Source of the DNA: an uncultured Vampirovibrio sp. | Lineage (GTDB): Bacteria; Cyanobacteriota; Vampirovibrionia; Gastranaerophilales; Gastranaerophilaceae | DNA: 64,000 nucleotides | Assembly (NCBI GenBank): GCA_964531425.1 | Contig: CAZHEI010000002.1 | Location: forward strand, 7,798-71,797 | Direction: 5' to 3' | Shown here: piece after piece, positions 13,436 through 53,853 of the stretch | Position numbering within the stretch: the first letter of the stretch is position 1 | Layout of the letters: each line of letters begins with the position of its first letter | The notes under the pieces: model-generated | The model's database searches: none | The model's input: the letters and a program-made list of their open reading frames with translations, nothing else | Told to the model about the DNA's origin: nothing | Translations under genes and position numbers: made by a program

Positions 13436-13465
13436 CAATTTTTAAAAAGAAAAATACTTTATATA
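13436..13465 (+). promoter_or_regulatory. Shared bipartite upstream motif, copy 1
   Basis: CAATTTT-N11-ATACTTTATATA, same spacing at 20993 and 53824. Confidence 0.7.
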
Positions 13466-13493
13466 AATATAACGGGATATAAAGGGAAATTTT

Positions 13494-15149
13494 ATGTCAG
13501 GATACTTTACAAACACAACATCATACAATATGCCTTGGATGCAAAATTCAATGCCAACATTTACTCCAAGCTTTACTCCAAATTTTACACCATCATGGGA
13601 TTGGAGTGGAAGTTCATCTATATATGGCTGGGGAAATAGCTCTAGTTCTTCCTCCGGTAGCTCTTCTAATCTTTCATTTGAAGAATATAAAGAAAAGGAA
13701 GCAGAAGAACTTGAAAAGAAATTAAAATCAACTAATAAAAATACAGCAACGACTCAACTTTTGAAAAACGGAGCTTCTATGTATACTACAATGTATACTG
13801 ATGAACAAAGCGGAGCATGTGTTGAAGTATATGCCGATAAAGATGGTAATCCATTAAAATTTAAGGTTGACAGTAACGGGCAGATAGCCTTAGATAGCAA
13901 CGGGAAACCAATAAAAGATTCAAATGGTTCCGTTATGCCTGTTTCAGACTTAAAATCAATAGAAAAAGCAAAAAAGAATTTAGAAAAATCTAAAAAGGAA
14001 GATGGCTCAGCTACAGTAAGTGTAACTGCCGAAGAATATGAAAAGAAAGTTCCGTGGTACAAACGAGCTTTAAGAGCCGGAGGTAACATGCTTCAAGGTA
14101 CGTTTAAAATGGCTAAAAGTTTAGTCGGATATGATGAAAATGGAAAATGGAATCTAGTTAAATGTATTAAAAACGTAGCGGTTTTAGCTGCCGGTGTTGC
14201 TCTTACTGCTGTTTGTCCAGCTGCTGGTCCTGTATTATTATATGCAGGTCTTGGGCTTGGCGCAGCACAAGTAGGAAAAGGTGTATACAAAGCTTGTACT
14301 GCTAAAACCGTTGAAGAAATTGACAATGCTTGGCAAGATGTCGGAGTTGGAGTTGCAACAGTTATCGCATCCAAAGGCGGGATTAAAGGTATGGGAAAAA
14401 CTGCCGGAGTTGATACTTCCGGTTTAAAAATGGTTACAAATGCAGGAAAACTAGTAAAATCACAACCTAAATGGATTTTTGCTAATGGATTTAAAGGTAG
14501 CGGAAAGTCATTTACAACAAATTTAAAAAATCTAAACCCATTTAAATCACAAACTAAAGAAAAGCTTAATCAAGCTGAACATGAATATGTACAAACTAAT
14601 TTAGGAATGAATGATTCAGCGCTTTCTGTAGCAGAAAAAGATGCATTACTTGATAGAGCTATTCAACTTGAACAAGAAATTGCAAATTTAAAAACTGCAA
14701 GAATGAATGAACTTTGCACTTCTCCTACAAAATGGATTAGTAAGCAAAATAGAAAAGCTGTTACAGAGCATACCGGCAAAAACCTTGTAAAATCATATTG
14801 GGATGCTAATACCGCAGGTAAAACTTGCCTAGGCAAAGCTTGGATATCTAAAACAATGTTTGTGGCAGGAAAAGCTACTAAAGGAGCAATGGGTGCCATG
14901 GCGCCGGATTTTATTCTCTGGGACCAAATTCAAAGTGGTTCATATATGACTACATTTATGGGAACAGATATGCTTGCATACAAGCAAAACTATGAAGAAG
15001 GTGCGTTAAATTCTTTGATTGCGCCGGAATCAGTTCAACATTTATCAGCAGAAGAATACGATAACCAATTAGCTTCATTAACCCAACAAGAAAAGGCTAT
15101 AAAAGACCAGCTTGCTACATTGGATAAAAAGAACGGTTCAGCTGCTTAA
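13494..15149 (+). CDS. Orphan protein: Ser/Thr-rich N-terminus, Gly/Ala hydrophobic hairpin, coiled coils (translocator/pore-former-like)
   Basis: 551-aa ORF with RBS; VAVLAAGVALTAVCPAAGPVLLYAGLGLGAAQVG. Confidence 0.75.
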   Translation: MSGYFTNTTSYNMPWMQNSMPTFTPSFTPNFTPSWDWSGSSSIYGWGNSSSSSSGSSSNLSFEEYKEKEAEELEKKLKSTNKNTATTQLLKNGASMYTTMYTDEQSGACVEVYADKDGNPLKFKVDSNGQIALDSNGKPIKDSNGSVMPVSDLKSIEKAKKNLEKSKKEDGSATVSVTAEEYEKKVPWYKRALRAGGNMLQGTFKMAKSLVGYDENGKWNLVKCIKNVAVLAAGVALTAVCPAAGPVLLYAGLGLGAAQVGKGVYKACTAKTVEEIDNAWQDVGVGVATVIASKGGIKGMGKTAGVDTSGLKMVTNAGKLVKSQPKWIFANGFKGSGKSFTTNLKNLNPFKSQTKEKLNQAEHEYVQTNLGMNDSALSVAEKDALLDRAIQLEQEIANLKTARMNELCTSPTKWISKQNRKAVTEHTGKNLVKSYWDANTAGKTCLGKAWISKTMFVAGKATKGAMGAMAPDFILWDQIQSGSYMTTFMGTDMLAYKQNYEEGALNSLIAPESVQHLSAEEYDNQLASLTQQEKAIKDQLATLDKKNGSAA

Positions 15150-16894
15150 TCCGACATTACGCTCATTTCGCAAATCTTGCAATCGAATTTTAGCGGATAA
15201 GTTTTTCCGAATTCATCACGCAAAACGAGATTAACGGGTGCTTTACACATGTTTAATGAATATTTAATACAATGCTTGCAACGCATTAATGGAACTTGTC
15301 GATTTGGCTGTTTGCTCTCAAAGGATGATTCAAGAACTTTGACTCCTGATTTTTCATAAAACATTTTAGCTGCTTTATTATGAACATTCGCTCTATAATC
15401 AACTTCTTTTAAGAAATATTCCGTATGTTCCATTTCTCTTTGAGTTTGTCGGATTTTTGTATTGTAAATATTCAGTCGCTCATTCATTAAATCCTCAAAC
15501 AATTCTCTGCGTAATTTATTAATTTCACTAACCGGCATGAAAGGAAGTTCTGATTCAATATTAATATTTTGAATATAAAAATCACTTTCGCCTGTTTTTG
15601 AAAATTGTTTTATAAAATTATCTTTCATTTTTTGAGGATTTTTTGCTTTTTCATTGCCTAAAATTGATTTGGATATTGAAATATTATCTTCGTCAATAAT
15701 TGTTAAAACTCCGTCTTTAACAGAAATTCTAACTCCAATCTGTCTTTTTACCGGTTTAGCCAGTTCTTTTTCAAAATCGGAATCATAATTTCGCCACAAT
15801 TTATCTCCAACTTTTAGTTTTACTGACTTGTTAGGGGAAATGGTCATTCCTACAACTTTATTAACAAGGAAACCTTCGCCTTTACAATAAATCCCGTCTT
15901 GCGGATGAATTTCTTTGTCGGTTTTTAATTTAAAACAATCTTTTTTTACTTCAATAACTTCACCCAAATACTCACCTTTTGATTTTGGAGATTCTTGATT
16001 GAAACAATTCGTACGACCGTTTAAGAAATATTCCGTAAAACCTCTGTTAAAACTCTTTTCCGGATTTGAAATAAACTGATAAACACTTCTTCCGGAGGAA
16101 GTTCCTTTCCCAAGTTTTTGTCTATAATAAGCCACAATATTCTTAACATAACCTGAATCTTTGAGACGTCCTTCTATTTTAAAAGAACAAACACCTGCAT
16201 TTTTCATTTCATCTAAACAGTTTGAAGCATTAAAATCTTTTAGGCAAAGTGCATAGAAATCTTTTTTTATGATTTTACCATCTGTTGTTTCAACAGTGAA
16301 TTTTTTACGGCAAGGTTGAGCACATTCCCCTCTGTTTGCCGAACGTCCGCCTATGTATTGACTCAAATAACATTGCCCGCTCATAGATACACAAAGTGCT
16401 CCGTGTACAAAAGCTTCTAATTCTAAATTAGGATTCTGTTCATGTATTTGTTTAATTTGTTCAATTGAAAGCTCTCTTGCCAAAATTACTCTTGAAACAC
16501 CAATTTTATTAAAGAATTTAACTTTTTGAGGTAAATAATTGTCGCATTGAGTACTCATGTGGATTGGAATTGGTAAACTTAATTCCATTAATCGTTCAAG
16601 CAGTCCCATATCCTGAATAATTAGTGCATCCACATCAATATCAGAAAGTTGTTTAGCTATATTAATTGCTGTTTCTAATTCAGAATCAGTCAAAATAGTA
16701 TTCATTGTAACAAATACTTTTGCCCAGAATTTGTGTGCATAATCAACAACTTCTTTGATATCTTCCAGTGTATTTGGAACATTTTTACGAGCACCAAATT
16801 TTGGAGCGCCAATATAAACTGCATCTGCTCCACAATTAATTGCCTCAAATGCTGTTTGCTTATCTTTTGCCGGTGCAAGAAGTTCTGTTTGCAT
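15146..16894 (-). CDS. U32 peptidase family (RlhA-like RNA hydroxylase, DUF3656-type extension)
   Basis: ELLAPA, GADAVYIG, HGALCVSMSGQC, NRGECAQPCR and KIEGR motifs. Confidence 0.9.
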   Translation of the reverse strand: MQTELLAPAKDKQTAFEAINCGADAVYIGAPKFGARKNVPNTLEDIKEVVDYAHKFWAKVFVTMNTILTDSELETAINIAKQLSDIDVDALIIQDMGLLERLMELSLPIPIHMSTQCDNYLPQKVKFFNKIGVSRVILARELSIEQIKQIHEQNPNLELEAFVHGALCVSMSGQCYLSQYIGGRSANRGECAQPCRKKFTVETTDGKIIKKDFYALCLKDFNASNCLDEMKNAGVCSFKIEGRLKDSGYVKNIVAYYRQKLGKGTSSGRSVYQFISNPEKSFNRGFTEYFLNGRTNCFNQESPKSKGEYLGEVIEVKKDCFKLKTDKEIHPQDGIYCKGEGFLVNKVVGMTISPNKSVKLKVGDKLWRNYDSDFEKELAKPVKRQIGVRISVKDGVLTIIDEDNISISKSILGNEKAKNPQKMKDNFIKQFSKTGESDFYIQNINIESELPFMPVSEINKLRRELFEDLMNERLNIYNTKIRQTQREMEHTEYFLKEVDYRANVHNKAAKMFYEKSGVKVLESSFESKQPNRQVPLMRCKHCIKYSLNMCKAPVNLVLRDEFGKTYPLKFDCKICEMSVMSD

Positions 16895-16987
16895 ATTTTA
16901 AGCTATCCTTAATTACTTTGTATCAACTAATTTTATCGTATCACTTATAAGCTTTTAATTCTTAGTTTATTTAAGACCGTGACTGAG

Positions 16988-17773
16988 CTACAAGCAATAC
17001 TTTTTCATTGCAGAAACAAATCCGTCTTCAAAAACAGAATCTGTTATATAATCAGCTTCATTTTTTAATTCTTCTGTTGCATTACCCATTGCGACTTTAA
17101 GCCCCCCAGCTTGTAGAAGAGCTATATCATTATTTTGGTCACCGATTGTTAAAATTTCGTCTTTATTTAGGTCCCAATATTTTTGTAAAAACTCTACTGC
17201 ACATTTCTTTGAAGCTTCAGGATTAGAAAATTCTAAAAAATAAGGAGTTGATTTAACAATATACAAATCAGGAAACAATTTTGGCAATTCTTTTTCATAT
17301 TGATTAATTCGTTCCGGATTAGAATAATCTATCGCCAACAATTTATTTATTTTGTCTTTTTTTATTTCACAAAAAGGTTTAACAGTATGTTCTGTATGCA
17401 AGTTATTACAGTATCTTTGGACTTCATAACATTCTGTTTCAGAATACAAAATGTCATCGTTATAAAGATTAATATGAATGTTTTCCTGTTTTGCCCATTT
17501 TAAGACTCTCTCTGCTTGTTCTTCCGTTAAGCATCTTTCATAAAGTTTTTTCCCGTTATGAACAACCAATCCGCCCTGATAAGAAACAACAGGAGTATCT
17601 AATCCTAAATCTTGAGCAATTCTTACAGCTGCAGCATTCATTCTTCCCGTTACAAGAACAACTTTAATTCCCTTTTTGCATAAATCGCTCACGCATTTTT
17701 TTACTCCGGAAGTAAAATCCCCTTCCGGAATTAAAATTGTTCCATCAATATCTGTTGCAACCAATTTAATCAT
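16988..17773 (-). CDS. Cof-type HAD-IIB hydrolase
   Basis: DIDGT, TGR, GDQNND and AMGNA motifs. Confidence 0.92.
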   Translation of the reverse strand: MIKLVATDIDGTILIPEGDFTSGVKKCVSDLCKKGIKVVLVTGRMNAAAVRIAQDLGLDTPVVSYQGGLVVHNGKKLYERCLTEEQAERVLKWAKQENIHINLYNDDILYSETECYEVQRYCNNLHTEHTVKPFCEIKKDKINKLLAIDYSNPERINQYEKELPKLFPDLYIVKSTPYFLEFSNPEASKKCAVEFLQKYWDLNKDEILTIGDQNNDIALLQAGGLKVAMGNATEELKNEADYITDSVFEDGFVSAMKKYCL

Positions 17774-17800
17774 ATAAATCCTCTCTAATGTAGCAATCGT

Positions 17801-18430
17801 TTAGAAAACTTTCCCATGAAAATCTGTCCCGCCTGTTCTAATTAATTCCGGATGATTTTTGGCGATATTCAAAACATCTTTTGCTGTATGAAATTTTACT
17901 ATTTTTCTAAATCTTGGATAAGGATAATAAGTCTCAATCCCATCTAATTCAATTTTTATTAAATCTCGTACTAATTGTTCCAAGCTCAATGCCCAATAAC
18001 ATGCTGGATGGGCTAAAACGGCAATTCCTCCTGCTTCATGAATTGCTTTAATCAAGTTCTTTACATTTCTGTTTGAAAAAAGTCTTGGTATAACATCCTC
18101 TGTATCTTTTTTATTTTTTGCTAAAAAAGGAGTTAGGGCAGAATGATTAATATCTATTCCATAAGCCAACAAGTGAATAAAAACATACCCGAACCAGCAA
18201 TCAAATTCAACACCTGTTAACAAAATACTGTCTTTAACATTTTTATGCGCATCTACTGTATTGTGATCCGTAATTGCAATTAGCTTATAACCTTGAATTT
18301 TTGCCGATTCGATTATTTGGAGGGTGTCTCCTTCCCCATCAGATAAAGAAGTATGTATATGGAGATTTACTCTATTATTTTTATAATCATCCTCTGTAAA
18401 ACTATTCAACAATTCTCTTAAATTTTCCAT
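17801..18430 (-). CDS. PHP-domain metal-dependent phosphoesterase
   Basis: LHIHTSLSDG, ITDHN, LAHP and GGTDFHG motifs. Confidence 0.9.
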   Translation of the reverse strand: MENLRELLNSFTEDDYKNNRVNLHIHTSLSDGEGDTLQIIESAKIQGYKLIAITDHNTVDAHKNVKDSILLTGVEFDCWFGYVFIHLLAYGIDINHSALTPFLAKNKKDTEDVIPRLFSNRNVKNLIKAIHEAGGIAVLAHPACYWALSLEQLVRDLIKIELDGIETYYPYPRFRKIVKFHTAKDVLNIAKNHPELIRTGGTDFHGKVF

Positions 18431-18477
18431 AACTTTATAATACAATAAAGAGATGAAATATTGAAAGGTTTCCACAA

Positions 18478-19497
18478 ATGACTAAGAAAAACAAAACTCT
18501 ACTTGGTATTTTTATAGAATCTATTGGTTTATATTTTTCTAATTTTGATAAATTTGTCAAATACATGACATTTCCGGTTTTAGGACAACTTGGAGGATTA
18601 AGTTTAGTATTTTTGTTGACGTATTTTTATGCAAAAAATATGCCCGCTCTTATCGAAAAATTTCCAAATTTAAATAGCTTTTCTCTATTGCTGGGAGTTG
18701 CGATTCTTCTTATTCTCCCTGGATTATCAATATTTATGAAAGCCTTTTGGGAATATCTTGTTGCTTATGGGGCAGTAAATTCAATGCTTGAAAATATGCT
18801 TAAATCTGGTAAAGTTTACGATTTTGATGCTCACACTGAATTAATAAAAAGAAGAGCAGTTCCTTTTATTGGTTTGTGGTTTTTATTTGGAATATTTTCT
18901 TTGGTTTCAGTAATCCCATTCTTCTGGGTACCATGTGGAGTATTGGCAGTATTTTTTGTATTAGTATTCCAAGTTTTTACTTACGAGCCTGAATTATCCC
19001 CTATCGGTTGTGTAAAAAAAAGTTTGCAACTTGTTAAAGGACATTTTGCTTCAACTTTTATGTTGATAGCACTAGTAGGTGCGTTGACTTATGTTTTAGT
19101 TCCGCAACTTGTCAATATGATATTTAGTTATATAAAATTAACACCGATTCTTGCCGGTTGGTTAACTCCTATTGTTGCAGAGTTTCCTCTAAATGAATGG
19201 AACAATTGGTTATCATATCTTTATATAAAACCAATAAAAGCGGAAGAGATAGCTCTTTTTGCTATAACTACTTATATTGCACAAATTTTTATTCAATATT
19301 CTCTTCCTTTACGTTCAATTTTATGGGGAATGTGGTATAAAGAACTTAACGGTTCTATTCCCAAAACAGTAGAAAAAAAGAAATCATATAAGAGTAAAAA
19401 ACCTAGTGAAAAATTAATGGAAGCTTCTCATAAAAAGTATTCTTCAAAGAAATTAGATAGAAATCTTTTAAAAAGAGCAATGGAAAAAGATGATTAA
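18478..19497 (+). CDS. Hypothetical polytopic membrane protein
   Basis: About 6 TM segments; Lys-rich C-terminal tail. Confidence 0.75.
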   Translation: MTKKNKTLLGIFIESIGLYFSNFDKFVKYMTFPVLGQLGGLSLVFLLTYFYAKNMPALIEKFPNLNSFSLLLGVAILLILPGLSIFMKAFWEYLVAYGAVNSMLENMLKSGKVYDFDAHTELIKRRAVPFIGLWFLFGIFSLVSVIPFFWVPCGVLAVFFVLVFQVFTYEPELSPIGCVKKSLQLVKGHFASTFMLIALVGALTYVLVPQLVNMIFSYIKLTPILAGWLTPIVAEFPLNEWNNWLSYLYIKPIKAEEIALFAITTYIAQIFIQYSLPLRSILWGMWYKELNGSIPKTVEKKKSYKSKKPSEKLMEASHKKYSSKKLDRNLLKRAMEKDD

Positions 19498-20945
19498 TTA
19501 AGTTTGTAAATTCTGAAATTCCACCGGTCTTTTATCGTTGTTTGTAACGTATAATTTTTTTCTACCCATTTTAAGATATCTTGAGCATAATCGACTCCAA
19601 ATTCACGGAAATAGTATGCAGAAGTGTCATAATCATTCAAAATGATATATTCAGGCTTAATAATTTCTAACCTTTTTATTATCAAATATTCGCCAAAGGT
19701 TTCCACATAAAGCGGAATTAATGAATAAAATTTATTATCACTTTTCCTGTTCGCTAAAACATTAATCGCTAAACACTCCGGATAAACGACAATTTTATCA
19801 GTTTTTAAAGTATTTTCGTTGACATATTTAATGACGTTATCCAATTTCATGTTTTTATGGACAAGAGAATTTATATTAAAAGCTCCTATAATTAAACTCC
19901 AGATTATCATTAAGCTAAAAAGGATTTTTCTAAATTTTTCAGGTACCAGTATAAAAAACGAAATTAATATAAACGGCATAAAATACACACCGTAAGACTG
20001 TAGCGTTAATGCAAGAAACACTTTTGCACTTATTAATAAAGTAGTAATAATAAAAAATATTTCGTTACTTTTAAGAGTTTTAAAGCGAATTATTCCAAGT
20101 AATAAAATGACCGGTAATGCCCATATAATAACTTCTTGATACTGAATCCAATAAATCGGACAGAGGAATTTGACAATATTTGTAATATAAATCGGAATCA
20201 ACTCTAATCTAAATGTCAAACCCATTACAGAATAAAACCAATAAAGGGTTTTTGAGCCACTCATTAAGTTAATAATATTTGCGGTTGAAATAATATCATT
20301 TAGTCTTACTCCCTGAATTGTCAAAATACAACCAGTTATAAATATTGGTAAAATTAAAGATATTAAATTTTTCTTCCAATTAACTAACTTTGACCAATAA
20401 ATTAATAAAGGAAACAGAAGTACAAATTCATATTTGCTAAGAATTGCCAATGAATAAAATAAATACATTAAAGGAAATCTTTTAATTAACCCATAGTATA
20501 AAGAAATTAGTACAAAAAGAGCTCCATATAGAATTCCAAATGAATATGGCAAAAATGAATTAAATACATTTGGAGATAAAACTAGTCCTGAAATTAAAAA
20601 AAGAGATATCCCGAAAGAAAAATTTCTATTTAAAAATATTTCTGATAATTTATTTGTTAAAAATATAATAGAACAAGTTGAAAATAATCCGGCAAAATAT
20701 AATGTGTTTAAACTTGTACCAAAGATTTTCATAATAAAGGCATTAATCAAATATGCAAAAGGAGGATAAATTAGGAAAATATCTTTGTATAAAGTTTTTC
20801 CTTCAATCATTTGCTGTGGAATATAAACTTCTCTAAAAGAATCCACCATAATATCGCCGAATTGTCCGTAAAACAGCACAAAAAACAGAATAACAAACAA
20901 TTCCGGCAAAATAATATGCCAGTTATTTTTTATAAAATCTTTCAA
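19494..20945 (-). CDS. GT-C-fold (PMT/ArnT-like) membrane glycosyltransferase
   Basis: DSFREVY...LYKDIFLIYPP first loop, many TMs, SKYE motif; TTG start. Confidence 0.65.
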   Translation of the reverse strand: MKDFIKNNWHIILPELFVILFFVLFYGQFGDIMVDSFREVYIPQQMIEGKTLYKDIFLIYPPFAYLINAFIMKIFGTSLNTLYFAGLFSTCSIIFLTNKLSEIFLNRNFSFGISLFLISGLVLSPNVFNSFLPYSFGILYGALFVLISLYYGLIKRFPLMYLFYSLAILSKYEFVLLFPLLIYWSKLVNWKKNLISLILPIFITGCILTIQGVRLNDIISTANIINLMSGSKTLYWFYSVMGLTFRLELIPIYITNIVKFLCPIYWIQYQEVIIWALPVILLLGIIRFKTLKSNEIFFIITTLLISAKVFLALTLQSYGVYFMPFILISFFILVPEKFRKILFSLMIIWSLIIGAFNINSLVHKNMKLDNVIKYVNENTLKTDKIVVYPECLAINVLANRKSDNKFYSLIPLYVETFGEYLIIKRLEIIKPEYIILNDYDTSAYYFREFGVDYAQDILKWVEKNYTLQTTIKDRWNFRIYKLN

Positions 20946-20992
20946 TTAAATACTCTTTCTACACAAATCTTAACAAAATAATCAAATTTAGG

Positions 20993-21022
20993 CAATTTTG
21001 TAACAAAAAAATACTTTATATA
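20993..21022 (+). promoter_or_regulatory. Shared bipartite upstream motif, copy 2
   Basis: CAATTTT-N11-ATACTTTATATA; contains a TTGTAAC half-site. Confidence 0.7.
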
Positions 21023-21054
21023 AATGTAAAGGTAGTAGTTAAGGTGTTGTAGAA

Positions 21055-21648
21055 ATGACAGTATTACCAGGGTCATTAGATTATTTATATTATAATGGAA
21101 CGCTTGATCATATTCCGTATGAAGCTTATGAAATGGGTCCTGTAACACCATCCGGCATGGCACAAATGTCAGGAATGGGAACGGGAATTGGTATGGAGTA
21201 TGGTATGAACCCAATTGGTGGATATAATATGAATCCTAACTATCAAATGAATGGCTATGGAATGGGTGGATATGTACCAACTTATCAAATGAATGGTTCA
21301 CAATACCTTCAAGCTGCGCAACAAGGAAGTTTGTATAATAATTACACTACTCAAGACAATTTTGTAAACAGATACAATTCTGATATTTCACAAGGACAAA
21401 ATTGTCCAAAAGGAAATTATGGATTTGGAGAAAATGGAAAAAATTTCCGAGAATCAATAATTGAAGCCGCTTCTGCTACAAAAGACACAGTTTCAAGTTC
21501 TCCAAATTGGATTAAAGGAATTTTAGCTGGTGGAATTATGCTGACGACTCTTTGCATGTTGTTCAAAGGGAAAAAGAAACCAATTCCGCAAATTCACAGT
21601 TCCAGTTTATTATCTAAATTAAATCCTAAAAACTGGATAAAAAAATAA
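21055..21648 (+). CDS. Orphan protein: Gly/Met/Tyr/Asn low-complexity region, C-terminal TM and basic tail
   Basis: YQMNG repeated; WIKGILAGGIMLTTLCMLFKGKKK; followed by a terminator. Confidence 0.75.
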   Translation: MTVLPGSLDYLYYNGTLDHIPYEAYEMGPVTPSGMAQMSGMGTGIGMEYGMNPIGGYNMNPNYQMNGYGMGGYVPTYQMNGSQYLQAAQQGSLYNNYTTQDNFVNRYNSDISQGQNCPKGNYGFGENGKNFRESIIEAASATKDTVSSSPNWIKGILAGGIMLTTLCMLFKGKKKPIPQIHSSSLLSKLNPKNWIKK

Positions 21649-21697
21649 AAACACTATATTAACCTTATTAAAATACCTTATTAATTAACCAATTTTC

Positions 21698-21722
21698 ACG
21701 CCTTTTCAAAGGCGTTTTTTTT
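21698..21722 (+). terminator. Intrinsic terminator
   Basis: ACGCCTTT-TC-AAAGGCGT followed by a T-run. Confidence 0.8.
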
Positions 21723-21759
21723 GCTGATAATTTGTCAAGTTGGCAACTATTCATCACCA

Positions 21760-23561: not shown

Positions 23562-23564
23562 GAT

Positions 23565-30438: not shown

Positions 30439-30554
30439 TGTGTATGCGGAGAAAATTGTGAATTATTCGGTGAATTGTAAATATTTCTTAATAATTGCGC
30501 AATTTTTAATATTGAGTTGTTTTAAGTAGATTGTAGTAAATGAAAGGAATTTTT

Positions 30555-45145: not shown

Positions 45146-45202
45146 ACTTTTGAAATACCATATGAATTTATATATTATACTTTTCACCTTCAAAAATTAA
45201 AA

Positions 45203-45553
45203 TTAGACATCCAAGTCTTCTTCATCCGGTTCCGGCTCCGGTATATCCGGCTCGGCAACAGTTTTTGTTAGTTTTTCATTTAATTCTTGAAGCGTAACTG
45301 ATTTATCCATTTTTTTCAATGCGTTTAAAACAGCAAGCTTATAGTCAGCATCGGCTCTATTTTTAGGATTATCAACAATTTCTCCGATTTTTTGGCCTAA
45401 AAAGCCCATTACAATCACCGCTGGCACTAAAATCATACTTGTTGCAATAATTGCATGACTATCAATCGTCCCAATTTTTACTATTGAGATTGTTCCAATT
45501 ACTAATACTGTAATTACTATAAAGAAATTTCTAAAATTTTCTGTGTGATCCAT
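45203..45553 (-). CDS. Small 2-TM hypothetical protein, last gene of the export-gate operon
   Basis: Start overlaps the PilZ stop; acidic/Pro-rich tail. Confidence 0.75.
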   Translation of the reverse strand: MDHTENFRNFFIVITVLVIGTISIVKIGTIDSHAIIATSMILVPAVIVMGFLGQKIGEIVDNPKNRADADYKLAVLNALKKMDKSVTLQELNEKLTKTVAEPDIPEPEPDEEDLDV

Positions 45554-46146
45554 TATTTTTTGTTCATGTTCTCCATATCTTTTTTCATACAGAATTGAAT
45601 CAACGTCATTTTATCAATATTAGACAAATTAGTGAAACGACCTGAAATCGTGTATAAACCGCTATCACCTTTTTCCACTCTAATAAGTTGATATTTACAT
45701 TTTACCTCTTGTTCGTTACTCAATTTAATTGTAACTTTATATTCTTTTTCAATATCGATATTTTCTTCAGTCCTAAGTTTCATCCCACCTGCAGAAAGAT
45801 CAAGTGTTCTAACTTTATGAGCTTTATTATCAGAAATTAGCTCTAAATCTTCAATAAATTTTATACGTGTAAATTTACGTCTTTGTAGGAATCTATGTTT
45901 AACAGGATTTGCAATTGTTATAACATTATTTTCCAAATTTTGAATATAAGATTCAAAATAAAGATACCCGTTATCTGTTAAAGAATAAAAATCACAAACA
46001 TGGTTTTTTATTAAACCTTCCGGCTTATATTTGAGCTCCATTCTAAATCCGTCTAAATCTACATGGAGAACTCTTCCTTTGTTAGAGTTTTTGAAATCTT
46101 GCGGAACAATAGTTACCAGTTGTTCTTTTTTTATTAATTCTCTCAT
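45553..46146 (-). CDS. PilZ-domain (YcgR-like) c-di-GMP receptor
   Basis: QRRKFTR (RxxxR) and DLSAGG (DxSxxG). Confidence 0.85.
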   Translation of the reverse strand: MRELIKKEQLVTIVPQDFKNSNKGRVLHVDLDGFRMELKYKPEGLIKNHVCDFYSLTDNGYLYFESYIQNLENNVITIANPVKHRFLQRRKFTRIKFIEDLELISDNKAHKVRTLDLSAGGMKLRTEENIDIEKEYKVTIKLSNEQEVKCKYQLIRVEKGDSGLYTISGRFTNLSNIDKMTLIQFCMKKDMENMNKK

Positions 46147-46161
46147 ACTCTTTACCTTTCT

Positions 46162-48270
46162 TTATTTTCTCGCCGGTTCAATTTTTATCATACCAACGGA
46201 TTTAACTTTAACGTTCGGACTTATTTCATTATAAGACATAATTGCAATTTGTGGATATGTTCTTTCCACAAGCTTTCTAAATAACAGTCTTATAGGAGAT
46301 GAACACAAGATAACCGGTTGATTACCTGTTGCTGTAATAGCTTTTTCTAATTCCAGATTCATTTTATCAAATAAAACTCTCGTAAAATTAGGGTCAAGCG
46401 TAACACTTGTTCCATCAGGACTAGCACCTTTTGCAATAGTTGTTTCAACATCAGGAGATAATGTAATAACATAAAGTTCGCCTGTATCAGCAAGATTTTG
46501 TTTGCAAATATTCCTTGCAAGAGCTTGTCTTGCGTGCTCAGTTAAGAAATTAGGATTTTTATTAATTTTAGACTGTAAACTTATTGTTTCTAAAATAGTT
46601 TTCAAATCTCTAACTGCAACCCCTTCTTTAAGTAAATTTTGAATAACAACTTGAATATCTCCAATAGAAATATCTTTCATAATGTCATTGACATATTCTT
46701 CTGAAACTTCTTTTTTTAGATTGTCAATAAGTTGTTGAATATCAAATCTTGAAACAATTTCGTACGCACATTTCTTAATAACTTCTGTTATATGTGTAGA
46801 AATAACAGCAGAAGCTGAAACAACAGTATAACCGGACATTTCTGCTAAATCTTTATCTTTTGCTTCAATCCACAATGCAGGTAAGCCAAATGCCGGTTCA
46901 ATGGCGTGAATACCATTGATTGTTAAGTTTCCAACAGGGTCACCTGCACACATTGCAAGATATCTTTCCGGATAAACTTCTCCTGATTCAAGAGCAACAC
47001 CTTTTAGCTTAATTTGATAAGAATTTGGCGATAACTGCAAATTATCTCGCACTCTGATTGATGGTAAAACAATTCCCAAATCAAGAGCTGTTTGACGTCT
47101 GATTTGCGCAATACGTTCAAGTAAATCTCCGCCCATTTCCACATTCAAAAGCTGTACAAGTCTGTAACCAACTTCAATTTCGATTGTATCAACATTAAGA
47201 AGTTCCATAACGCTCTCTTTAGTAGCTTTTGCTCGTTTTTCTTTTTTGCCGAGTTTTTCTTGTTGTTCTTGCTGAACTTTTTGTGCTTCTTCTGCTTTAA
47301 CTTTTTGGTCTTTTTCTTTTGTCTTAAAGAATGCCATTCCCCCTGCTACGAGAGCAATCAAAAGGAATGGTGCAGTCGGCATGCCCGGAACTATCCCCAT
47401 GAATGCAAGTAAACCGGAAACAACCCCCAAAACTCTTGGGTCAGAGAACATTTCATTCTTAATATCAGTAGAAAGTGATTCATCCTTACCACTTGCACGA
47501 GATACAATCAAACCTGTTGCAGTAGAGATAAGAAGAGCCGGAATTTGTGAAACAAGACCATCCCCAACTGTTAAAATTGTATAGGTATTTAATGCTTGAA
47601 TGATGTCCATTTTGGATTGAACAACACCAATTATCAAACCACCGACGATGTTTACTATTGTAATTACAATACCGGCAGTTGCATCACCTTTTACGAATTT
47701 TGAAGCACCATCCATTGTTCCGTAGAAGTCTGTTTCTCTCTCAAGTTTTCTTCTTCGTTCTTTGGCTTGGTCTTCATTTATTAATCCTGAGTTCAAATCT
47801 GCGTCAATACTCAATTGCTTACCAGGCATTTTATCCAATGTAAAACGAGCAGATACTTCAGCAACACGAGTTGCACCACCTGTAATAACCATAAAGTTGA
47901 TTAATACCAGAATACAAAATATAACTGCACCGACAACGTAATTATCACCAACAACGAAACTTCCAAATGAATCAATAACATTGCCGGCCTCGCCATGCAG
48001 AAGAATTAATCGAGTTGAACTTACGTTTAATCCTAACCTAAATAGAGTTGCAATCAACAAAACCGTAGGAAAAGACGAATAATCAAGTGGTTCCTGAGTA
48101 TACAAACATACAAGTAAAATTACAACTGCTAAAGAAATATTTATTGTAAGCAAGACATCCAAAAGAGGTGCAGGAAGTGGTATAACCATCATACAGACGA
48201 TTACAACCAAACCTATCGCAAGCACGATATCATTATTTTTAAGTATGTTTGATAACTTACTTAACTCCAT
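46162..48270 (-). CDS. flhA: Flagellar type III export gate protein FlhA
   Basis: RLGLNVSSTR, ARFTLDKMPGKQLSIDADL and FYGTMDGASKFVKGD motifs. Confidence 0.96.
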   Translation of the reverse strand: MELSKLSNILKNNDIVLAIGLVVIVCMMVIPLPAPLLDVLLTINISLAVVILLVCLYTQEPLDYSSFPTVLLIATLFRLGLNVSSTRLILLHGEAGNVIDSFGSFVVGDNYVVGAVIFCILVLINFMVITGGATRVAEVSARFTLDKMPGKQLSIDADLNSGLINEDQAKERRRKLERETDFYGTMDGASKFVKGDATAGIVITIVNIVGGLIIGVVQSKMDIIQALNTYTILTVGDGLVSQIPALLISTATGLIVSRASGKDESLSTDIKNEMFSDPRVLGVVSGLLAFMGIVPGMPTAPFLLIALVAGGMAFFKTKEKDQKVKAEEAQKVQQEQQEKLGKKEKRAKATKESVMELLNVDTIEIEVGYRLVQLLNVEMGGDLLERIAQIRRQTALDLGIVLPSIRVRDNLQLSPNSYQIKLKGVALESGEVYPERYLAMCAGDPVGNLTINGIHAIEPAFGLPALWIEAKDKDLAEMSGYTVVSASAVISTHITEVIKKCAYEIVSRFDIQQLIDNLKKEVSEEYVNDIMKDISIGDIQVVIQNLLKEGVAVRDLKTILETISLQSKINKNPNFLTEHARQALARNICKQNLADTGELYVITLSPDVETTIAKGASPDGTSVTLDPNFTRVLFDKMNLELEKAITATGNQPVILCSSPIRLLFRKLVERTYPQIAIMSYNEISPNVKVKSVGMIKIEPARK

Positions 48271-48280
48271 CCTCTTCTAC

Positions 48281-49360
48281 CTAAGTCTCCTTCTTATTAT
48301 TGTACACGTAAGCAAGAATTTCAGCAACAGCTACATATAAATCTGATGGAATTACCCCATCAACCGGCACTGCATTATATAAAGCCCTTGCTACAGGTCT
48401 GTTTTCAACAATTGGAACATTGTTACTTTTTGCAATATCACGAATTTGGAATGCAAGATAGTCCACCCCTTTTGCTACTACTATAGGTGCCGGCGCTTTT
48501 GTCTTATCATATTGAATAGCAACTGCATAGTGAGTTGGGTTTGTAACAACAACATCAGCTTGAGGAACAGCAGACATCATTCTTTGACGAGCCATTTGCA
48601 TTTGAATAGACTTGATTCTTGCCTTAATTTTAGGATCCCCTTCTGTATCCTTATGTTCATCTTTAACTTCTTGTTTTGTCATCTTAATAGATTTTTCGTA
48701 TTCATAAGTTTGATACTTTTTGTCTAAATATCCTAAAATTAGCATTGCCAAGCACATATTTATAATCATGTGGGCTAGAATAGATGCTATAACGCTCAGT
48801 GCTATGTGAAAATCTAATCCGACAAGCCCGAGTAAATCTCCCTTTCTGCTGTTTATAGCTGAATAACCACATGCACAAACAATAACCAGTTTAAGAATTG
48901 ATTTTGCAAATTCTACCATTGAACGGGGTTGAAACGGATTGAACATTCTTTTTGCATTTTCAAGAATTCTTCTTGGACTTAGATTTTCGAGGTTAAATTT
49001 GGCTTTTTCAAGAGCAAAAACATGTCCTACATCCATTCTGACAACAACAATTGCTAAAATTACTAAAAAAGCAAAAAACGGAACGACAATTATGCCTAAA
49101 TATTTAAAATAAGGATACAGCATTCCCACTATACTTGATGTATCAATTGAATCAGGATTAAGATTATTAAATGTATCCTGCATCATTGCAATAATAGTAT
49201 TGTACATGTGCTTCCAAAAAACACCAAGTAAAGCTATTCCGCCAATCATTACCATTGCGGATTCCATATCTTTACTTTTTGCTACATTTCCCCTTTCACG
49301 TTCTTTCGTTCGCCGTCGGGTGGTGGCTTCTTCGGTTTTTTCTGCTGCTTCGTTTCCCAT
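48281..49360 (-). CDS. flhB: Export specificity switch FlhB
   Basis: EKTEEAT, KMTKQEVKDE and intact NPTH autocleavage site. Confidence 0.96.
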   Translation of the reverse strand: MGNEAAEKTEEATTRRRTKERERGNVAKSKDMESAMVMIGGIALLGVFWKHMYNTIIAMMQDTFNNLNPDSIDTSSIVGMLYPYFKYLGIIVVPFFAFLVILAIVVVRMDVGHVFALEKAKFNLENLSPRRILENAKRMFNPFQPRSMVEFAKSILKLVIVCACGYSAINSRKGDLLGLVGLDFHIALSVIASILAHMIINMCLAMLILGYLDKKYQTYEYEKSIKMTKQEVKDEHKDTEGDPKIKARIKSIQMQMARQRMMSAVPQADVVVTNPTHYAVAIQYDKTKAPAPIVVAKGVDYLAFQIRDIAKSNNVPIVENRPVARALYNAVPVDGVIPSDLYVAVAEILAYVYNNKKET

Positions 49361-49411
49361 TTTGTTAAATGTTCAGGCTATTGATTGCCTTTAAGTTTCC
49401 TTTCTTATTTT

Positions 49412-50191
49412 TTAAAATATTGCTGCAATTTTAGTTAAGAATTGTTCTATTATCACTGCCATGTGTTCTGCAATAGGTCGCATAAACATTAACGACAATA
49501 ACATCCCTAAATATATTTTTAATGGTATTGAAACCATGAAAATATTCATTTGTGGCATCATTTTTGATGTAAACCCCAATAAGATATCAGTAATAAATAG
49601 AACTCCAAAAATTGGAAGTGCAATTCCTAATCCAACTGAAAATATTTGACTAGTAATTATTACAATTTGTTCTACCAGACCTGGAGAAAATCCGATAATA
49701 TATCCAACCGGCATACTCTTAAAACTGTTATAAATTGCAGAAAACAGCCATTGATGAGCACCTAACCCTAAAAAAATCATAGATGCTAAATACGTAAAAG
49801 CTTGAGTTAAAACAGGAGAATTACCACCTGAAGTCGGGTTTAGAGCTTGGTCAGCTGATAATCCCATCTGTACGGTAAAAGTATTAACACCTAATTCAAT
49901 TCCAACAAATATAATGTTTGCGCAAAACCCAATTGCAAAACCGATAAGAAATTCTTTAAATAGAATCAAAGTTAATGCCGGAACCGAAGTTGGAACGGCA
50001 AAATTCGTATTCACTTGTACAATTGGAAACAAAATGAATGCAATTGCTGCCGCAAGCCAGATTTTTACTTGTACAGGTATCGGATAGGTTGAAAACAATG
50101 GCGCAGACGAAAAAAGTCCTGACAATCTGGTAAATATTGCCATAAATAAAATGATATTATTTATAGAAAATAGTACATCCAGATTAAACAT
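49412..50191 (-). CDS. fliR: Export gate protein FliR
   Basis: RLSGLF, QMGL and PQMNIF motifs. Confidence 0.93.
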   Translation of the reverse strand: MFNLDVLFSINNIILFMAIFTRLSGLFSSAPLFSTYPIPVQVKIWLAAAIAFILFPIVQVNTNFAVPTSVPALTLILFKEFLIGFAIGFCANIIFVGIELGVNTFTVQMGLSADQALNPTSGGNSPVLTQAFTYLASMIFLGLGAHQWLFSAIYNSFKSMPVGYIIGFSPGLVEQIVIITSQIFSVGLGIALPIFGVLFITDILLGFTSKMMPQMNIFMVSIPLKIYLGMLLSLMFMRPIAEHMAVIIEQFLTKIAAIF

Positions 50192-50192
50192 T

Positions 50193-50465
50193 CTACATTG
50201 CACCTACCAACTGAGGAATCATTGCCATAAATTCATTTACGGTTGTTATAAAAACGCTCATCATCCAAGGCATAAGGAATATTAGCAAAATTACACAACC
50301 AACAATTTTGGGAACAAATGTTAAGGTTGATTCTTGAATTTGCGTAACGGTTTGGAAAATACTTACCATAAGACCAATAACAACCCCGACTAAAAGTACC
50401 GGAACTGACATCTGCAAAGTAAGAATAAACATTTTTTGTAATAAAGTTATAACAATATCTTGCAT
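50193..50465 (-). CDS. fliQ: Export gate protein FliQ
   Basis: FQTVTQIQESTLTFVPK. Confidence 0.95.
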   Translation of the reverse strand: MQDIVITLLQKMFILTLQMSVPVLLVGVVIGLMVSIFQTVTQIQESTLTFVPKIVGCVILLIFLMPWMMSVFITTVNEFMAMIPQLVGAM

Positions 50466-50472
50466 TTTCTTC

Positions 50473-51225
50473 CTACCTCACAAAACTTTCTACCAGTGAT
50501 TTTACTATTAAATACCAACCATCAACCATAACAAACATAATGAGTTTGAAAGGCAGTGCAATCATAGAAGGTGGCAGGAACATCATCCCCATTGAAACCA
50601 ATACTGATGAAACAACGATATCAATAACAAGGAATGGAAGATATACAACAAACCCTATTGTGAAAGCCGTTTTTAATTCACTTAAAATAAAAGATGGCAA
50701 GAGGACATAAGTTGGAACATCTTCTTTTGTTTTTGGTTTTTCGATTTTTGCCATTCTTACAAATAAAGCTAATTCTTTTTCGTGAGTTTGTTTAAACATG
50801 AAATTCCTAATAGGCTGAATTCCTCTATCAAGCGCAGCTTGTTGTGTAATTTGATTTTGCATATACGGTTGTAAGGCTTTTTCGTTAATTTCGTTAAAAG
50901 TTGGAGCCATAATAAAGAACGTTAAAATTAGGGCTAAACTTGTTAAAACCTGATTTGGCGGAAGTGAACCGGCACCTAATGCTTGGCGAGTAAGAGCAAG
51001 AACAACAACCAAACGTACAAAACAAGTTGTCATAATCAAAATACTCGGGGCTAGGGTTAAAATTGTTAACCAAATTAAGATTTGTAATCCATTCGTAAAA
51101 TCTTGCGGTGTGTTTGCAGTTTGCATTCCAATGTTTATATTTGGAAACGTCATTGCTGCACAAGACGGTAACACCGTCAAAAATAATCCGGCAAGTGCAT
51201 ATCCCCATTTTTTTAAGATATTCAT
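50473..51225 (-). CDS. fliP: Export gate protein FliP
   Basis: PPNQVL, SELKTAF and MGMMFLPP motifs; signal peptide. Confidence 0.96.
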   Translation of the reverse strand: MNILKKWGYALAGLFLTVLPSCAAMTFPNINIGMQTANTPQDFTNGLQILIWLTILTLAPSILIMTTCFVRLVVVLALTRQALGAGSLPPNQVLTSLALILTFFIMAPTFNEINEKALQPYMQNQITQQAALDRGIQPIRNFMFKQTHEKELALFVRMAKIEKPKTKEDVPTYVLLPSFILSELKTAFTIGFVVYLPFLVIDIVVSSVLVSMGMMFLPPSMIALPFKLIMFVMVDGWYLIVKSLVESFVR

Positions 51226-51280
51226 TTATTAATTCCTCAAAAATCAACTATTTATAAAGAGCCAAAACTCTCCCTACAAT

Positions 51281-51310
51281 ATTGTATATGATAGAGGTAT
51301 ACTAGAGCAA
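51281..51310 (-). promoter_or_regulatory. Candidate sigma70 promoter for the fliP operon
   Basis: TTGCTC-N18-TACAAT; the -10 lies within palindrome TACAATATTGTA (51275-51286). Confidence 0.35.
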
Positions 51311-51337
51311 ACTTTTAATATTTATTAATATTCCATA

Positions 51338-52444
51338 TTAAAATAATTCTTTAGTTTTAGCTCTTATTTCACTATCTATTTCAAAAATTTCGTCTATTGT
51401 CGGTGATTTAATCGGATTATGTATTTCAAGCATTTTTTCAACAGTATCTATAATATCAAACAGCTTTATCTTTCCATTTAGAAATGCAAAAACTGCTTCT
51501 TCATTTGCAGCATTCATACATACCGGCATAGAACCGCCTATTCGACCACAATCATAAGCGATTTTTAATGCTTTAAACTTATTCCAATCGGGAGCTTCAA
51601 AATCAAGTCTTGCTATTTCTGAAAAACTAAAACTTTTTGACTTGATTCCCTCAAATCGTTCAGGATATGTAATTGCATACTGAATAGGAATATGCATGCT
51701 TGGTAAACCCAATTGCGCAATAACACTACCATCAACATACTCAATTGCAGAATGGACAACGCTTTGGGGATGTACTACAACATCAATTTTATCATAGTCC
51801 ATGCCAAACAAATGATGCGCCTCAATAACTTCAAGACCTTTATTCATAAGAGTTGCACTGTCAACTGTAATTTTTCGTCCCATATTCCAGCGAGGATGCG
51901 CAAGTGCTTGTTCTACAGTAGCATTTTTCATATCCTCAAGAGATTTATGTAAAAATGGCCCGCCTGAAGCTGTTATTATAAGTTTTTCTACTTGTGCAAT
52001 ATCTTTTATACATTGATGAATTGCACAATGTTCACTATCTACCGGAATAATGTTAACACCTTTTTCTTTAGCTAAAGGCATTACAACATCTCCTGCCATA
52101 ACAAGAGTTTCTTTATTCGCTAACGCAATATCTATACCATTATTTATTGCTGTTAGTGTCGGCTTTAAGCCGATTTTACCGGATACCGCAACCAGTATAA
52201 TATCATTATTTTTATCAGAACAAATTTCTTCTAAAGTCTTGAACTCAGCCCCGATAATCAGCTCAGGTTTTGATGCATAAGCATATTTAGGCTTAAATTT
52301 CGAGATTTGTTCATTTAGCAAATCTATATTTGACCCACCAGCAAGCGCAATTATCTCAAACTTGTCAGATAGTTTTTCTATAACCTCTAAAGCTTGTCTT
52401 CCAATTGAACCAGTTGAACCTAAAATACTTATTTTTCTTTTCAT
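51338..52444 (-). CDS. dxr: 1-deoxy-D-xylulose-5-phosphate reductoisomerase
   Basis: LGSTGSIG, ANKE, PVDSEH and NKGLEVIEA motifs. Confidence 0.96.
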   Translation of the reverse strand: MKRKISILGSTGSIGRQALEVIEKLSDKFEIIALAGGSNIDLLNEQISKFKPKYAYASKPELIIGAEFKTLEEICSDKNNDIILVAVSGKIGLKPTLTAINNGIDIALANKETLVMAGDVVMPLAKEKGVNIIPVDSEHCAIHQCIKDIAQVEKLIITASGGPFLHKSLEDMKNATVEQALAHPRWNMGRKITVDSATLMNKGLEVIEAHHLFGMDYDKIDVVVHPQSVVHSAIEYVDGSVIAQLGLPSMHIPIQYAITYPERFEGIKSKSFSFSEIARLDFEAPDWNKFKALKIAYDCGRIGGSMPVCMNAANEEAVFAFLNGKIKLFDIIDTVEKMLEIHNPIKSPTIDEIFEIDSEIRAKTKELF

Positions 52445-52494
52445 AAGTTTATTATAATACAAAAATAAAGTTTGCTTTTATGACAATAAAAAAT

Positions 52495-52567
52495 TGCGCT
52501 TGGCGCGATTCGAACGCGCGACCTATCCCTTAAAAGGGGAGTGCTCTACCTGCTGAGCTACAAGCGC
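52495..52567 (-). tRNA. tRNA-Lys (anticodon TTT), CCA not encoded
   Basis: GCGCTTG TA GCTC AGCAGGTA GAGC A CTCCC CTTTTAA GGGAT AGGTC GCGCG TTCGAAT CGCGC CAAGCGC A. Confidence 0.95.
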
Positions 52568-52644
52568 AAATTTTAATAAAATTTGTAAAACTATTTATTT
52601 TTCAATTACCTTTCGGACTAGCTGGTCTACTGACCACAAGAGCT

Positions 52645-52673
52645 ATGATATCAAGAACAAATTTTACTGTCAA
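52645..52673 (-). promoter_or_regulatory. Sigma70 promoter for tRNA-Lys(TTT)
   Basis: TTGACA-N17-TATCAT with TGn extension. Confidence 0.7.
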
Positions 52674-53688
52674 GCGTTTTTTTATTAACCTTTATTTCTT
52701 CAATAATAGTTTGGACTTCATTCGATATATCGCTTTTGTTTTCAATATTTTCTCTAACGAGTTTTGCAAATTCTGCTTTTTTAAACTCATGCAAACCTTT
52801 TGTCTTAAAGATTTCTTCAAGTATCTTTGCAGTTGGCATATCTTCTGCGAAATCGGATTCAGTAATTTCTACAAAGTTCTCAAAATGAGAGTTCACAGTT
52901 TTGACAATTAAGTTCTTTGGCAACAAATCTTCGAATTCTCCGCATGAAACAAGATGAATTCTGTCTTGAATTCTTAAGCGAGGTTTGATTTGTTGAATAT
53001 TTTCTTCCGCATCTTTATCTAATAGAACAAAAATAGGGCATTTAAGTTCTTGAGAAAGTTCATAATACATTTTTACAACTTGATTTTTCCCACCTGCAGC
53101 AATAACTTGTATACCTTTGGCATAAAAATCATAATCGAGCAGTTTTGAAAAAGCCGGAAGTAAAATTTCTTCCGTTATTCCTTCTACAAGAAGGACTTCT
53201 TCTATAGGATATTTCAACAATTTATTTTCTCGTAAATTTACAATCGATGAATTCAAAAAATCCATATTTTCATCTTGCTTATAAATATTAATTAATTCTT
53301 TCAGCCATCTTAAATTTACAGGACATTCTTCCGGTACTAATTCAATCGCACTAATATAATCAATATTATTATTTAGTAATTTTTTAGTTTCACTATTGTT
53401 TACAAAAACACTGTTTTCATAATTTTTTAAAAATAATATTATTCTATTGTTTAATACCATATTTGCACTAGACTTTGACAAAGAATTATTAAAAATTTCT
53501 GAAACATAATTCGTCAGTAATTCAAAATCCATGTTTGCAATTTCATTTCGTTTTAATTTTGGCTCTAACAAACAGTTTACAAATATATCAGAAAATACTC
53601 TTAAATATTTTTCACGAGTATTTTTGAAACGTGTTAATCTATCAAGTGATATAATTATTTGTTCTTTTGTTAACTTTTTATACTTCAT
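52651..53688 (-). CDS. OLD-family TOPRIM-domain protein lacking an ATPase domain
   Basis: LLVEGITEEILLP, GGK, LLDKD and EFEDLL; no Walker A motif. Confidence 0.7.
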   Translation of the reverse strand: MKYKKLTKEQIIISLDRLTRFKNTREKYLRVFSDIFVNCLLEPKLKRNEIANMDFELLTNYVSEIFNNSLSKSSANMVLNNRIILFLKNYENSVFVNNSETKKLLNNNIDYISAIELVPEECPVNLRWLKELINIYKQDENMDFLNSSIVNLRENKLLKYPIEEVLLVEGITEEILLPAFSKLLDYDFYAKGIQVIAAGGKNQVVKMYYELSQELKCPIFVLLDKDAEENIQQIKPRLRIQDRIHLVSCGEFEDLLPKNLIVKTVNSHFENFVEITESDFAEDMPTAKILEEIFKTKGLHEFKKAEFAKLVRENIENKSDISNEVQTIIEEIKVNKKTLDSKICS

Positions 53689-53787
53689 TTGTAACTATTT
53701 TATAATTTATTTAAAAATTTTTCAAATCTCTAGAATTCAGCAGTATCAATATTTATAGAATAATTATATACTTCTTATCGCAAACCT

Positions 53788-53805
53788 CTTGTAAAGTTTT
53801 GTAAC
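53788..53805 (-). promoter_or_regulatory. HLR1-like direct repeat
   Basis: Minus strand GTTACAAA-AC-TTTACAAG. Confidence 0.5.
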
Positions 53806-53823
53806 GAAATTACTTAAATTGCG

Positions 53824-53853
53824 CAATTTTAGGGAAAAGATATACTTTATATA
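53824..53853 (+). promoter_or_regulatory. Shared bipartite upstream motif, copy 3
   Basis: CAATTTT-N11-ATACTTTATATA. Confidence 0.7.

Follow-up and report, generated by a model that had tools for sequence, protein, structure and literature searches.

A 64-kb window of DNA (64,000 nucleotides, the whole stretch analysed here) from the draft genome of an uncultured Vampirovibrio sp. contains three exact copies of a bipartite sequence motif, each located in front of a gene, and members of the same class occur throughout the genome. We are highly confident that the motif is a real and conserved promoter. What is demonstrated here is the motif itself, with its fixed spacing, its position relative to genes, its conservation in related genomes and its distinctness from the organism's own housekeeping promoter. 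These findings point to a dedicated promoter class of one order of gut and rumen Melainabacteria, which are non-photosynthetic relatives of the cyanobacteria. As to the proteins that use it, we consider it probable, albeit unproven, that an alternative sigma-70-family factor recognizes the promoter with the help of an RpaB-type activator.

The window was searched for CAATTTT-N11-ATACTTTATATA with both boxes and the spacing exact. The pattern was found three times, always on the plus strand (13436-13465, 20993-21022 and 53824-53853), in agreement with the original prediction, which had described three identical pairs of boxes with identical spacing. The number of matches expected by chance was 0.31 even if up to three mismatches were allowed, and none of 100 shuffled sequences reached three. 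The distances previously given between the motif and the ATG codons at 13494, 21055 and 53892 (28, 32 and 38 nt, respectively) proved correct. All three genes point away from their 5′ neighbour, as had been stated, and they are also convergent with their 3′ neighbour. A position weight matrix (PWM) built from the genome gave scores of 38.2, 42.4 and 35.6 for sites 1, 2 and 3, whereas the best other position in the window scored 11 and all the rest 1 or less. A degenerate fourth copy had been proposed in front of the gene near 30540 (30495..30538, plus strand). Its PWM score was -17.1, compared with approximately 35-42 at the real sites, and we rejected this candidate at ~30.5 kb as an instance of the motif.

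Next to the window copies, the PWM detected many further sites in the genome, a 1.74-Mb draft assembly of 129 contigs (32% G+C, 87% complete, 84% coding). There were 62 sites with a score above 14 and 76 with a score above 10, as opposed to 0-1 in shuffled contigs, and the class amounts to ~60-75 units per genome, about 20 times the three genes of the window. The full consensus consists of an A-rich run, (G)G[C/A]AATT(TTT), ~10 variable bases, aA, TACTTTATATA and tATA-AG; reduced to its core, it reads G[C/A]AATT, exactly 14 nt, TACTTTATATA(tATAAG). The -35-like box is GCAATT at 47 of the 62 sites and GAAATT at nine, and 55 of 70 pairs in the genome have a spacer of exactly 14 nt. Taken by itself, the 12-mer has 25 copies in the genome, with G[C/A]AAT always at the same upstream distance (in one case TCAAT). 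Near-invariant positions are the C of TACTTT and the TATATA that follows it. The conserved -10-proximal block is 11-14 nt long and shows neither dyad nor direct-repeat symmetry, and the spacers and flanks differ from copy to copy.

The original prediction of an alternative-sigma promoter, or an activator site, that defines a regulon would have been refuted by a random placement of the motif relative to gene starts. This was clearly not what we found: 60 of the 62 sites fall between genes, although coding sequence makes up 84% of the genome, and they face either a start codon a short way downstream or a small RNA closed by a terminator, which makes the proposed regulon the reading favoured by the evidence. 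An open reading frame (ORF) of at least 40 codons begins on the same strand 5-111 nt (median ~32 nt) 3′ of 52 of the 60 best-scoring sites. At least another four sites lead small RNA units, which contain no ORF and are closed by intrinsic terminators, and it is difficult to see what other than a promoter would be followed by such a short unit with a terminator. Hardly any of the downstream proteins are related to one another, therefore the shared feature is the promoter and not a gene duplication. Recurrence of AT-rich words is to be expected in a genome of 32% G+C, and the sites could in principle represent a non-regulatory dispersed repeat (a miniature mobile element or a repetitive extragenic palindrome-like sequence) or a chance recurrence of such words. 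This explanation is extremely improbable in view of the excess over shuffled contigs (62-76 sites versus 0-1), the different flanks and spacers of the copies, the unrelated downstream genes, the promoter-like placement and orientation, and the selective conservation of the boxes in 25 species described below.

Conservation was assessed by counting exact GCAATT, 13-15 nt, TACTTTATA, with the reversed pattern serving as control (~0). All 24 genomes of the same genus contain the motif (11-41 exact copies each), as do all 24 genomes from other genera of the family (4-17 copies each) and most genomes from most other families of the order (2-11 copies each). One family of the order, f4, showed only background: there were no exact copies, and a looser pattern was found 3-4 times versus 1-2 times for the reversed control. 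In other orders of the class the motif is mostly missing (0-2 exact copies per genome). The best single piece of evidence is the phylogenetic footprint upstream of gene 3 (the gene behind site 3), which covers 25 species of the genus. In this set the protein diverges down to 32% identity and the spacers vary freely, whereas three blocks stay fixed: TGTAAAG-TTT-TGTAACAA, G[C/A]AATT and TACTTTATATATATAAGAGTATAAAAA. Among the gene 3 orthologues GCAATT and GAAATT interchange.

The promoter was also found in phages. A scan of IMG/VR returned 49 single exact matches, which we estimate to be near the chance number for a collection of that size. About ten AT-rich contigs of this collection have the promoter in full, upstream boxes and flanks included, and give PWM scores of 38-47. 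Among these, the fragment L121 is of genuine phage origin and contains genes for portal, major head and tail proteins. Its promoter (5981-6011) is predicted to drive a 96-aa orphan gene (5662-5952, minus strand), which lies beside the structural module in a moron-like arrangement.

The original prediction had placed the motif outside the sigma-70, sigma-28 and sigma-54 consensus sequences, and the comparisons upheld this view. A scan with the sigma-70 consensus flagged none of the three window sites and did not reveal a sigma-70-like promoter beneath them; the tRNA genes of the same organism are preceded by canonical TTGACA-N17-TATAAT. The sigma-28 consensus TAAA-N15-GCCGATAA is absent from the motif at the window sites. 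FliA is encoded separately, and none of the nine flagellin genes examined has the motif upstream, which led us to reject a late-flagellar-gene promoter. The GC expected 10 nt after the GG of a sigma-54 promoter is missing at the window sites, and the 87%-complete genome gave no Sigma54_DBD match that would indicate rpoN. The blank sigma-70 scan also bears on the idea that the conserved block is an operator, at which a repressor or other protein overlaps weak ordinary promoters, with co-repression as the feature shared by the set. The unusual length of the -10-proximal block (11-14 nt) would fit such an operator, and the set includes the gene of a ribbon-helix-helix regulator. On the other hand, there is no sigma-70-like promoter under the window sites for a repressor to overlap, and the block is asymmetric and strictly oriented relative to the gene, whereas most operators are symmetric. 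We regard the operator explanation as improbable.

Upstream of the core, hexamers of the type [GT]T[TA]ACA accumulate at three positions, -52, -42/-41 and -32/-31, counted from the T of TACTTTAT. These positions are approximately one helical turn (~10 bp) apart and lie 20-30 nt upstream of the -35 box. At least one phased hexamer is present at 37 of the 62 sites (~60%), compared with 1.5 expected; nine sites have two, and 25 have no upstream box. Direct repeats of this type are bound by OmpR-family regulators. Three such regulators are encoded in the genome (L073, L074 and L075), one of which, L073 (L073:324-1106, minus strand), is an RpaB orthologue scoring 355.5 bits against the NCBIfam equivalog NF045944 (cut-off 330), in a host that is non-photosynthetic. 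In cyanobacteria RpaB binds the HLR1 element, and HLR1 centred between -66 and -45 activates transcription in Synechocystis (Riediger et al. 2019, PMC6525291). In our sites the midpoint of the box pair lies ~44 nt 5′ of the T of TACTTTAT, and this would correspond to approximately -57 to -63 if the predicted transcription start lies 12-18 nt after this T. Defined strictly as two (G/T)TTACA(T/A)(T/A) octamers separated by 2 nt, HLR1-style pairs occur at six of the 62 sites, compared with 0.04 expected. Many of the upstream boxes are GTAACA or TTAACA rather than TTTACA; perfect HLR1-type pairs are found in the orthologue locus L068 and in the phage copies. The location of the boxes at a predicted RpaB-activating position, together with the presence of an RpaB orthologue, suggests that RpaB tunes or switches the class, and an RpaB-type regulator probably assists from these boxes.

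In the mechanism that we favour, RNA polymerase containing an alternative sigma-70-family factor would read the -35-like G[C/A]AATT and, 14 nt further on, the long -10-like TACTTTATATA. Transcription is predicted to start in the TATAAG stretch after TACTTTATATA, giving leaders of ~20-30 nt. The RpaB orthologue, acting at the upstream boxes of ~60% of the sites, would probably tune or switch the class, which would drive ~60-75 mostly monocistronic units encoding mainly lineage-specific soluble proteins with no Sec signals or membrane segments.

The competing scheme that deserves most attention does without an alternative sigma. TACTTT could serve as a weak -10 element for the primary sigma, with G[C/A]AATT as a class II activator site at the -35 position and/or with RpaB recruiting the polymerase. 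Because TACTTT contains the TAnnnT core and retains both critical bases (A at -11, T at -7), this scheme is a live rival, and it gains from the RpaB orthologue and from upstream boxes at what would be an RpaB-activating distance (PMC6525291) as well as from the finding that no sigma gene is autoregulated by the motif. Several features of the sites fit it less well. G[C/A]AATT is a single 6-bp box that lacks a partner half-site, and the spacing is rigid to the base pair (55 of 70), typical of one protein reading both boxes. Furthermore, the near-invariant C of TACTTT and the TATATA occupy positions that the primary sigma reads with no base specificity, and 25 of 62 sites have no upstream box. 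We consider the primary sigma plus activator the less likely solution, and infer that one alternative sigma reads both boxes.

Seven sigma-70-family genes were identified in the genome (L001-L007). L002 encodes the primary sigma, L007 is FliA, and L003 is a SigB/F-type sigma, the one SigF/J-like sigma of the organism. L005 and L006 are extracytoplasmic function (ECF) sigmas, each accompanied by a zinc-finger anti-sigma partner, and L001 and L004 (L004:995-1876, minus strand) are two lineage-specific group-2-like sigmas. Orthologues of the latter two are found family-wide (57-67% identity for L004, 55-60% for L001). Most other families of the order have L004 orthologues with 43-58% identity, and the best matches of L004 and L001 in other orders are only ~40-52% identical and mostly resemble other sigma paralogues. 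Their distribution parallels that of the motif, yet it is the same for both sigmas.

A number of points weigh against the proposed mechanism. We infer promoter activity in this uncultured organism from its DNA. The conserved -10 region of 11-14 nt exceeds the usual footprint of a sigma factor, and a second protein may contact it. TACTTT, fitting the minimal TAnnnT core, looks compatible with the primary sigma plus an activator. Only six of 62 sites have strict HLR1 pairs. The motif is upstream of no sigma gene: there were no PWM matches near any of the seven, and therefore no sign of autoregulation. Phylogenetic profiles do not separate the candidates, L001 and L004 sharing one distribution and L003 being class-wide, and family f4 retains an L004-type sigma while lacking the motif. 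For these reasons we abandoned the phylogenetic profile as a means of assigning the sigma; the f4 exception in particular speaks against L004.

Some discrimination between the candidates was offered by their sequences. In E. coli numbering, both L004 and L001 have a K in place of R584, which contacts the -35 element, and L004 has the further substitutions T440F, R441K, H455Y and R586C. Throughout the order the L004 family (orthologues L076-L089) has the invariant region 4.2 signature VTKECIRQTE, with IPVY in region 3.0. None of the NCBIfam equivalogs matched the L004-type family, and the residue equivalent to E. coli T440 did not track with motif abundance. The substitutions at DNA-contacting positions and the order-wide invariant signature weakly favour L004. 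L003 is single-copy throughout the class, and its divergence (32-38% identity even between genera with an identical motif) fits an invariant promoter poorly. On this basis an L004-type sigma is our leading, still tentative, candidate for the reader of the motif; an L001-type sigma is a weaker candidate, the SigF/J-like L003 is weaker again, and an ECF sigma is very unlikely.

The products of the class are largely devoid of recognizable domains. A Pfam domain was detected in only about nine of the 52 downstream proteins scanned, and was absent from nine of ten regulon proteins of 448-830 aa. The families represented were LysM, glucosaminidase, CHAP, ADP-ribosyltransferase, TPS, ribbon-helix-helix, HD, outer-membrane beta-barrel, HEAT and glycine zipper. 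The original prediction had regarded the products as candidate secreted or structural proteins. Signal-peptide-like N-termini were rare (1 of 58 regulon proteins versus 288 of 1434 other ORFs), and so were membrane-like segments (2 of 58 versus 355 of 1434). In the first 30 residues of the regulon proteins Q is enriched 1.8-fold and N 1.5-fold, M and T are also increased, and K, E, R and L are decreased. Several of the proteins have glycine-zipper-like stretches at their C-terminal end.

In addition to protein-coding units, the motif precedes small RNA genes. Three C/A-rich, terminator-ended RNAs of ~95-110 nt lie behind it, at C9:10102 (plus strand), C27:7126 (minus strand) and C90:4046 (plus strand), and the RNAs on contigs C9 and C27 are near-identical copies. 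A C/U-rich RNA of ~60 nt with its own terminator (contig C8, ~401, minus strand) is preceded by a promoter of the same class. The 5′ part of this RNA, CUCUCUCUUCUU, is anti-Shine-Dalgarno-like. The RNA is conserved in four other genera (L069-L072), where it adjoins the L004-type sigma gene. The motif-driven small RNAs did not match any family in Rfam.

The genome contains a complete set of flagellar genes: an export gate in the window, eleven flagellin matches, rod and hook genes and FliF. In the window the export gate genes flhA, flhB, fliR, fliQ and fliP adjoin a PilZ-domain gene, a NeuB-type synthase of the sialic/pseudaminic acid type and a FliO-like gene (45203-51225 and 57000-58686). Since rod, hook, FliF and the flagellin matches are present elsewhere in the genome, this gate is not a stand-alone system. 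A search of the 87%-complete genome for type VI and contractile-sheath genes found none, and the flagellar apparatus is the only non-Sec route seen, type I secretion having been outside the search. That the regulon proteins are exported is speculation. A rather doubtful extension of the favoured mechanism is that the promoter defines a programme switched by RpaB (with an NblS-type kinase) and a lineage-specific sigma, whose proteins would travel through, and whose small RNAs would regulate, a non-Sec export system, most plausibly flagellar type III. The ~60 proteins concerned are orphan, signal-less and free of membrane segments, with Q/N/T-rich, charge-poor N-termini, some of them with peptidoglycan-hydrolase, ADP-ribosyltransferase or C-terminal glycine-zipper modules. 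If true, such a programme would give the 'photosynthetic' regulator RpaB a first role in gut bacteria that are related to cyanobacteria but do not photosynthesize, and the effectors that these bacteria secrete would be defined by it.

The individual features at the three window sites, all on the plus strand, are as follows. At site 1, two upstream direct-repeat boxes read from the sequence (ATTACA and GTTACA, 10 bp apart, HLR1/OmpR-like; 13414..13431) precede the core promoter (13434..13475; exact match), which comprises the -35-like box, here TCAATT, 14 nt, TACTTTATATA and the predicted start region. Orphan gene 1 (13494..15149) is an ORF of 551 aa that did not match any family in the Pfam scan. 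Its orthologue in another Melainabacteria metagenome-assembled genome (51% identity) still adjoins era, and has retained the promoter core with one change and a perfect TTTACA direct repeat. Site 2 has an upstream TTAACA box at -42 relative to TACTTTAT (20970..20975, read from the sequence), followed by the core promoter (20991..21032; exact match) with GGCAATT, the spacer, TACTTTATATA and the predicted start region. The ORF of orphan gene 2 (21055..21648) encodes 197 aa, and the hairpin scan located a terminator-like hairpin downstream of it at 21698-21715. At site 3 the upstream direct repeat (53790..53807) consists of TGTAAAGT, 2 nt and TGTAACGA, and is conserved in the 25 species of the footprint; the core promoter (53823..53863), identified by the exact match and the footprint, consists of GCAATT, 14 nt, TACTTTATATA and TGTAAGAG. 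The ORF of gene 3 (53892..54680) encodes 262 aa and is also followed by a terminator-like hairpin (54704-54727). The gene 3 family contains more than 200 metagenomic sequences and is confined to this genus. An AlphaFold2 model of the protein (mean pLDDT, the model's own per-residue confidence score, 84.5) predicts a long antiparallel helical hairpin with a small mixed tip, and a fold search against the PDB gave no significant match, only generic coiled-coil hairpins.

Near the motif sites the window contains common bacterial housekeeping genes, among them era, mutL and fmt. Two other kinds of repeated sequence were noted. Several tRNA genes of different specificity have in common a ~45-nt leader with a hairpin (cgaggaagattaagtatcttccgagg-like), which was seen in the window (~2272-2450, minus strand) and at no fewer than five other tRNA genes (contigs C1, C3, C71, C87 and C104). 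Short tandem repeats, a run of the ATAGG pentamer and TTATTCAC-like units, were seen at the ends of contigs (C1:1-60) and in the leaders of flagellin genes (C51 and C33).

As yet uncultured, Melainabacteria are frequent inhabitants of the gut of humans and animals, and to our knowledge nothing is known of their gene regulation. The promoter class provides a sequence-defined regulon of ~60-75 units that has been conserved within an order and adopted by its phages. For annotation, a simple matrix detects real genes and small RNAs that cannot be named by homology. Why Melainabacteria keep RpaA, RpaB and NblS in the absence of photosynthesis has been an open question since 2013 (PMC3787301). The regulon makes the question of the retained RpaB experimentally testable, through the sigma that reads the motif, the binding of RpaB, and the roles of the signal-less orphan proteins and small RNAs.

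The consensus matches none of the promoter classes with which it was compared (sigma-70, sigma-28, sigma-54, ECF and J-Box). With the canonical group-1 sigma-70 promoter it shares the bipartite organization, a similar centre-to-centre distance and the TAnnnT core held within TACTTT. It differs in consensus, is missed by the sigma-70 scan, and coexists with canonical tRNA promoters in the same genome. ECF promoters (e.g. TGAAAC-N16-CGTA) resemble it in having a -35 box whose AA core precedes a T, as well as a conserved C ~16-17 nt downstream; unlike them, the motif has neither AAC nor CGT. Moreover, both ECF genes of this genome lack the motif upstream, though ECF sigmas are usually autoregulated. 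A full-text literature search on sigma factors, promoters and RpaB/HLR1 in Melainabacteria yielded no description of such a promoter. An alternative promoter class with upstream response-regulator boxes is of a known kind; the co-regulated gene set itself is undescribed in the searched literature.

Two systems of cyanobacteria come closer. The J-Box of SigJ in Nostoc punctiforme, GGGaAtacT with a weak -35 (Gonzalez et al. 2019, PMC6495340), also belongs to an alternative-sigma regulon of the cyanobacterial lineage, with ~100 promoters and a long, highly conserved -10 region (PMC6495340), and its hexamer aAtacT is identical to the aATACT that opens the -10 box of our motif. By the combination of the invariant GGG and aAtacT our sites are not J-Boxes: aATACT is present, but an A-rich stretch replaces the GGG. 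In addition, the -35 box is strongly conserved in our sites, and TTATATA follows the hexamer. HLR1/RpaB promoters as described have no counterpart of the strongly conserved core G[C/A]AATT-N14-TACTTTATATA; the boxes found here are mostly GTAACA/TTAACA with strict pairs at six of 62 sites, and the organism is non-photosynthetic. What the two seem to have in common is the ~10-bp-periodic array of TTACA-type direct repeats upstream of the core and, provided that transcription starts directly after the motif, a distance that lies inside the activating window.

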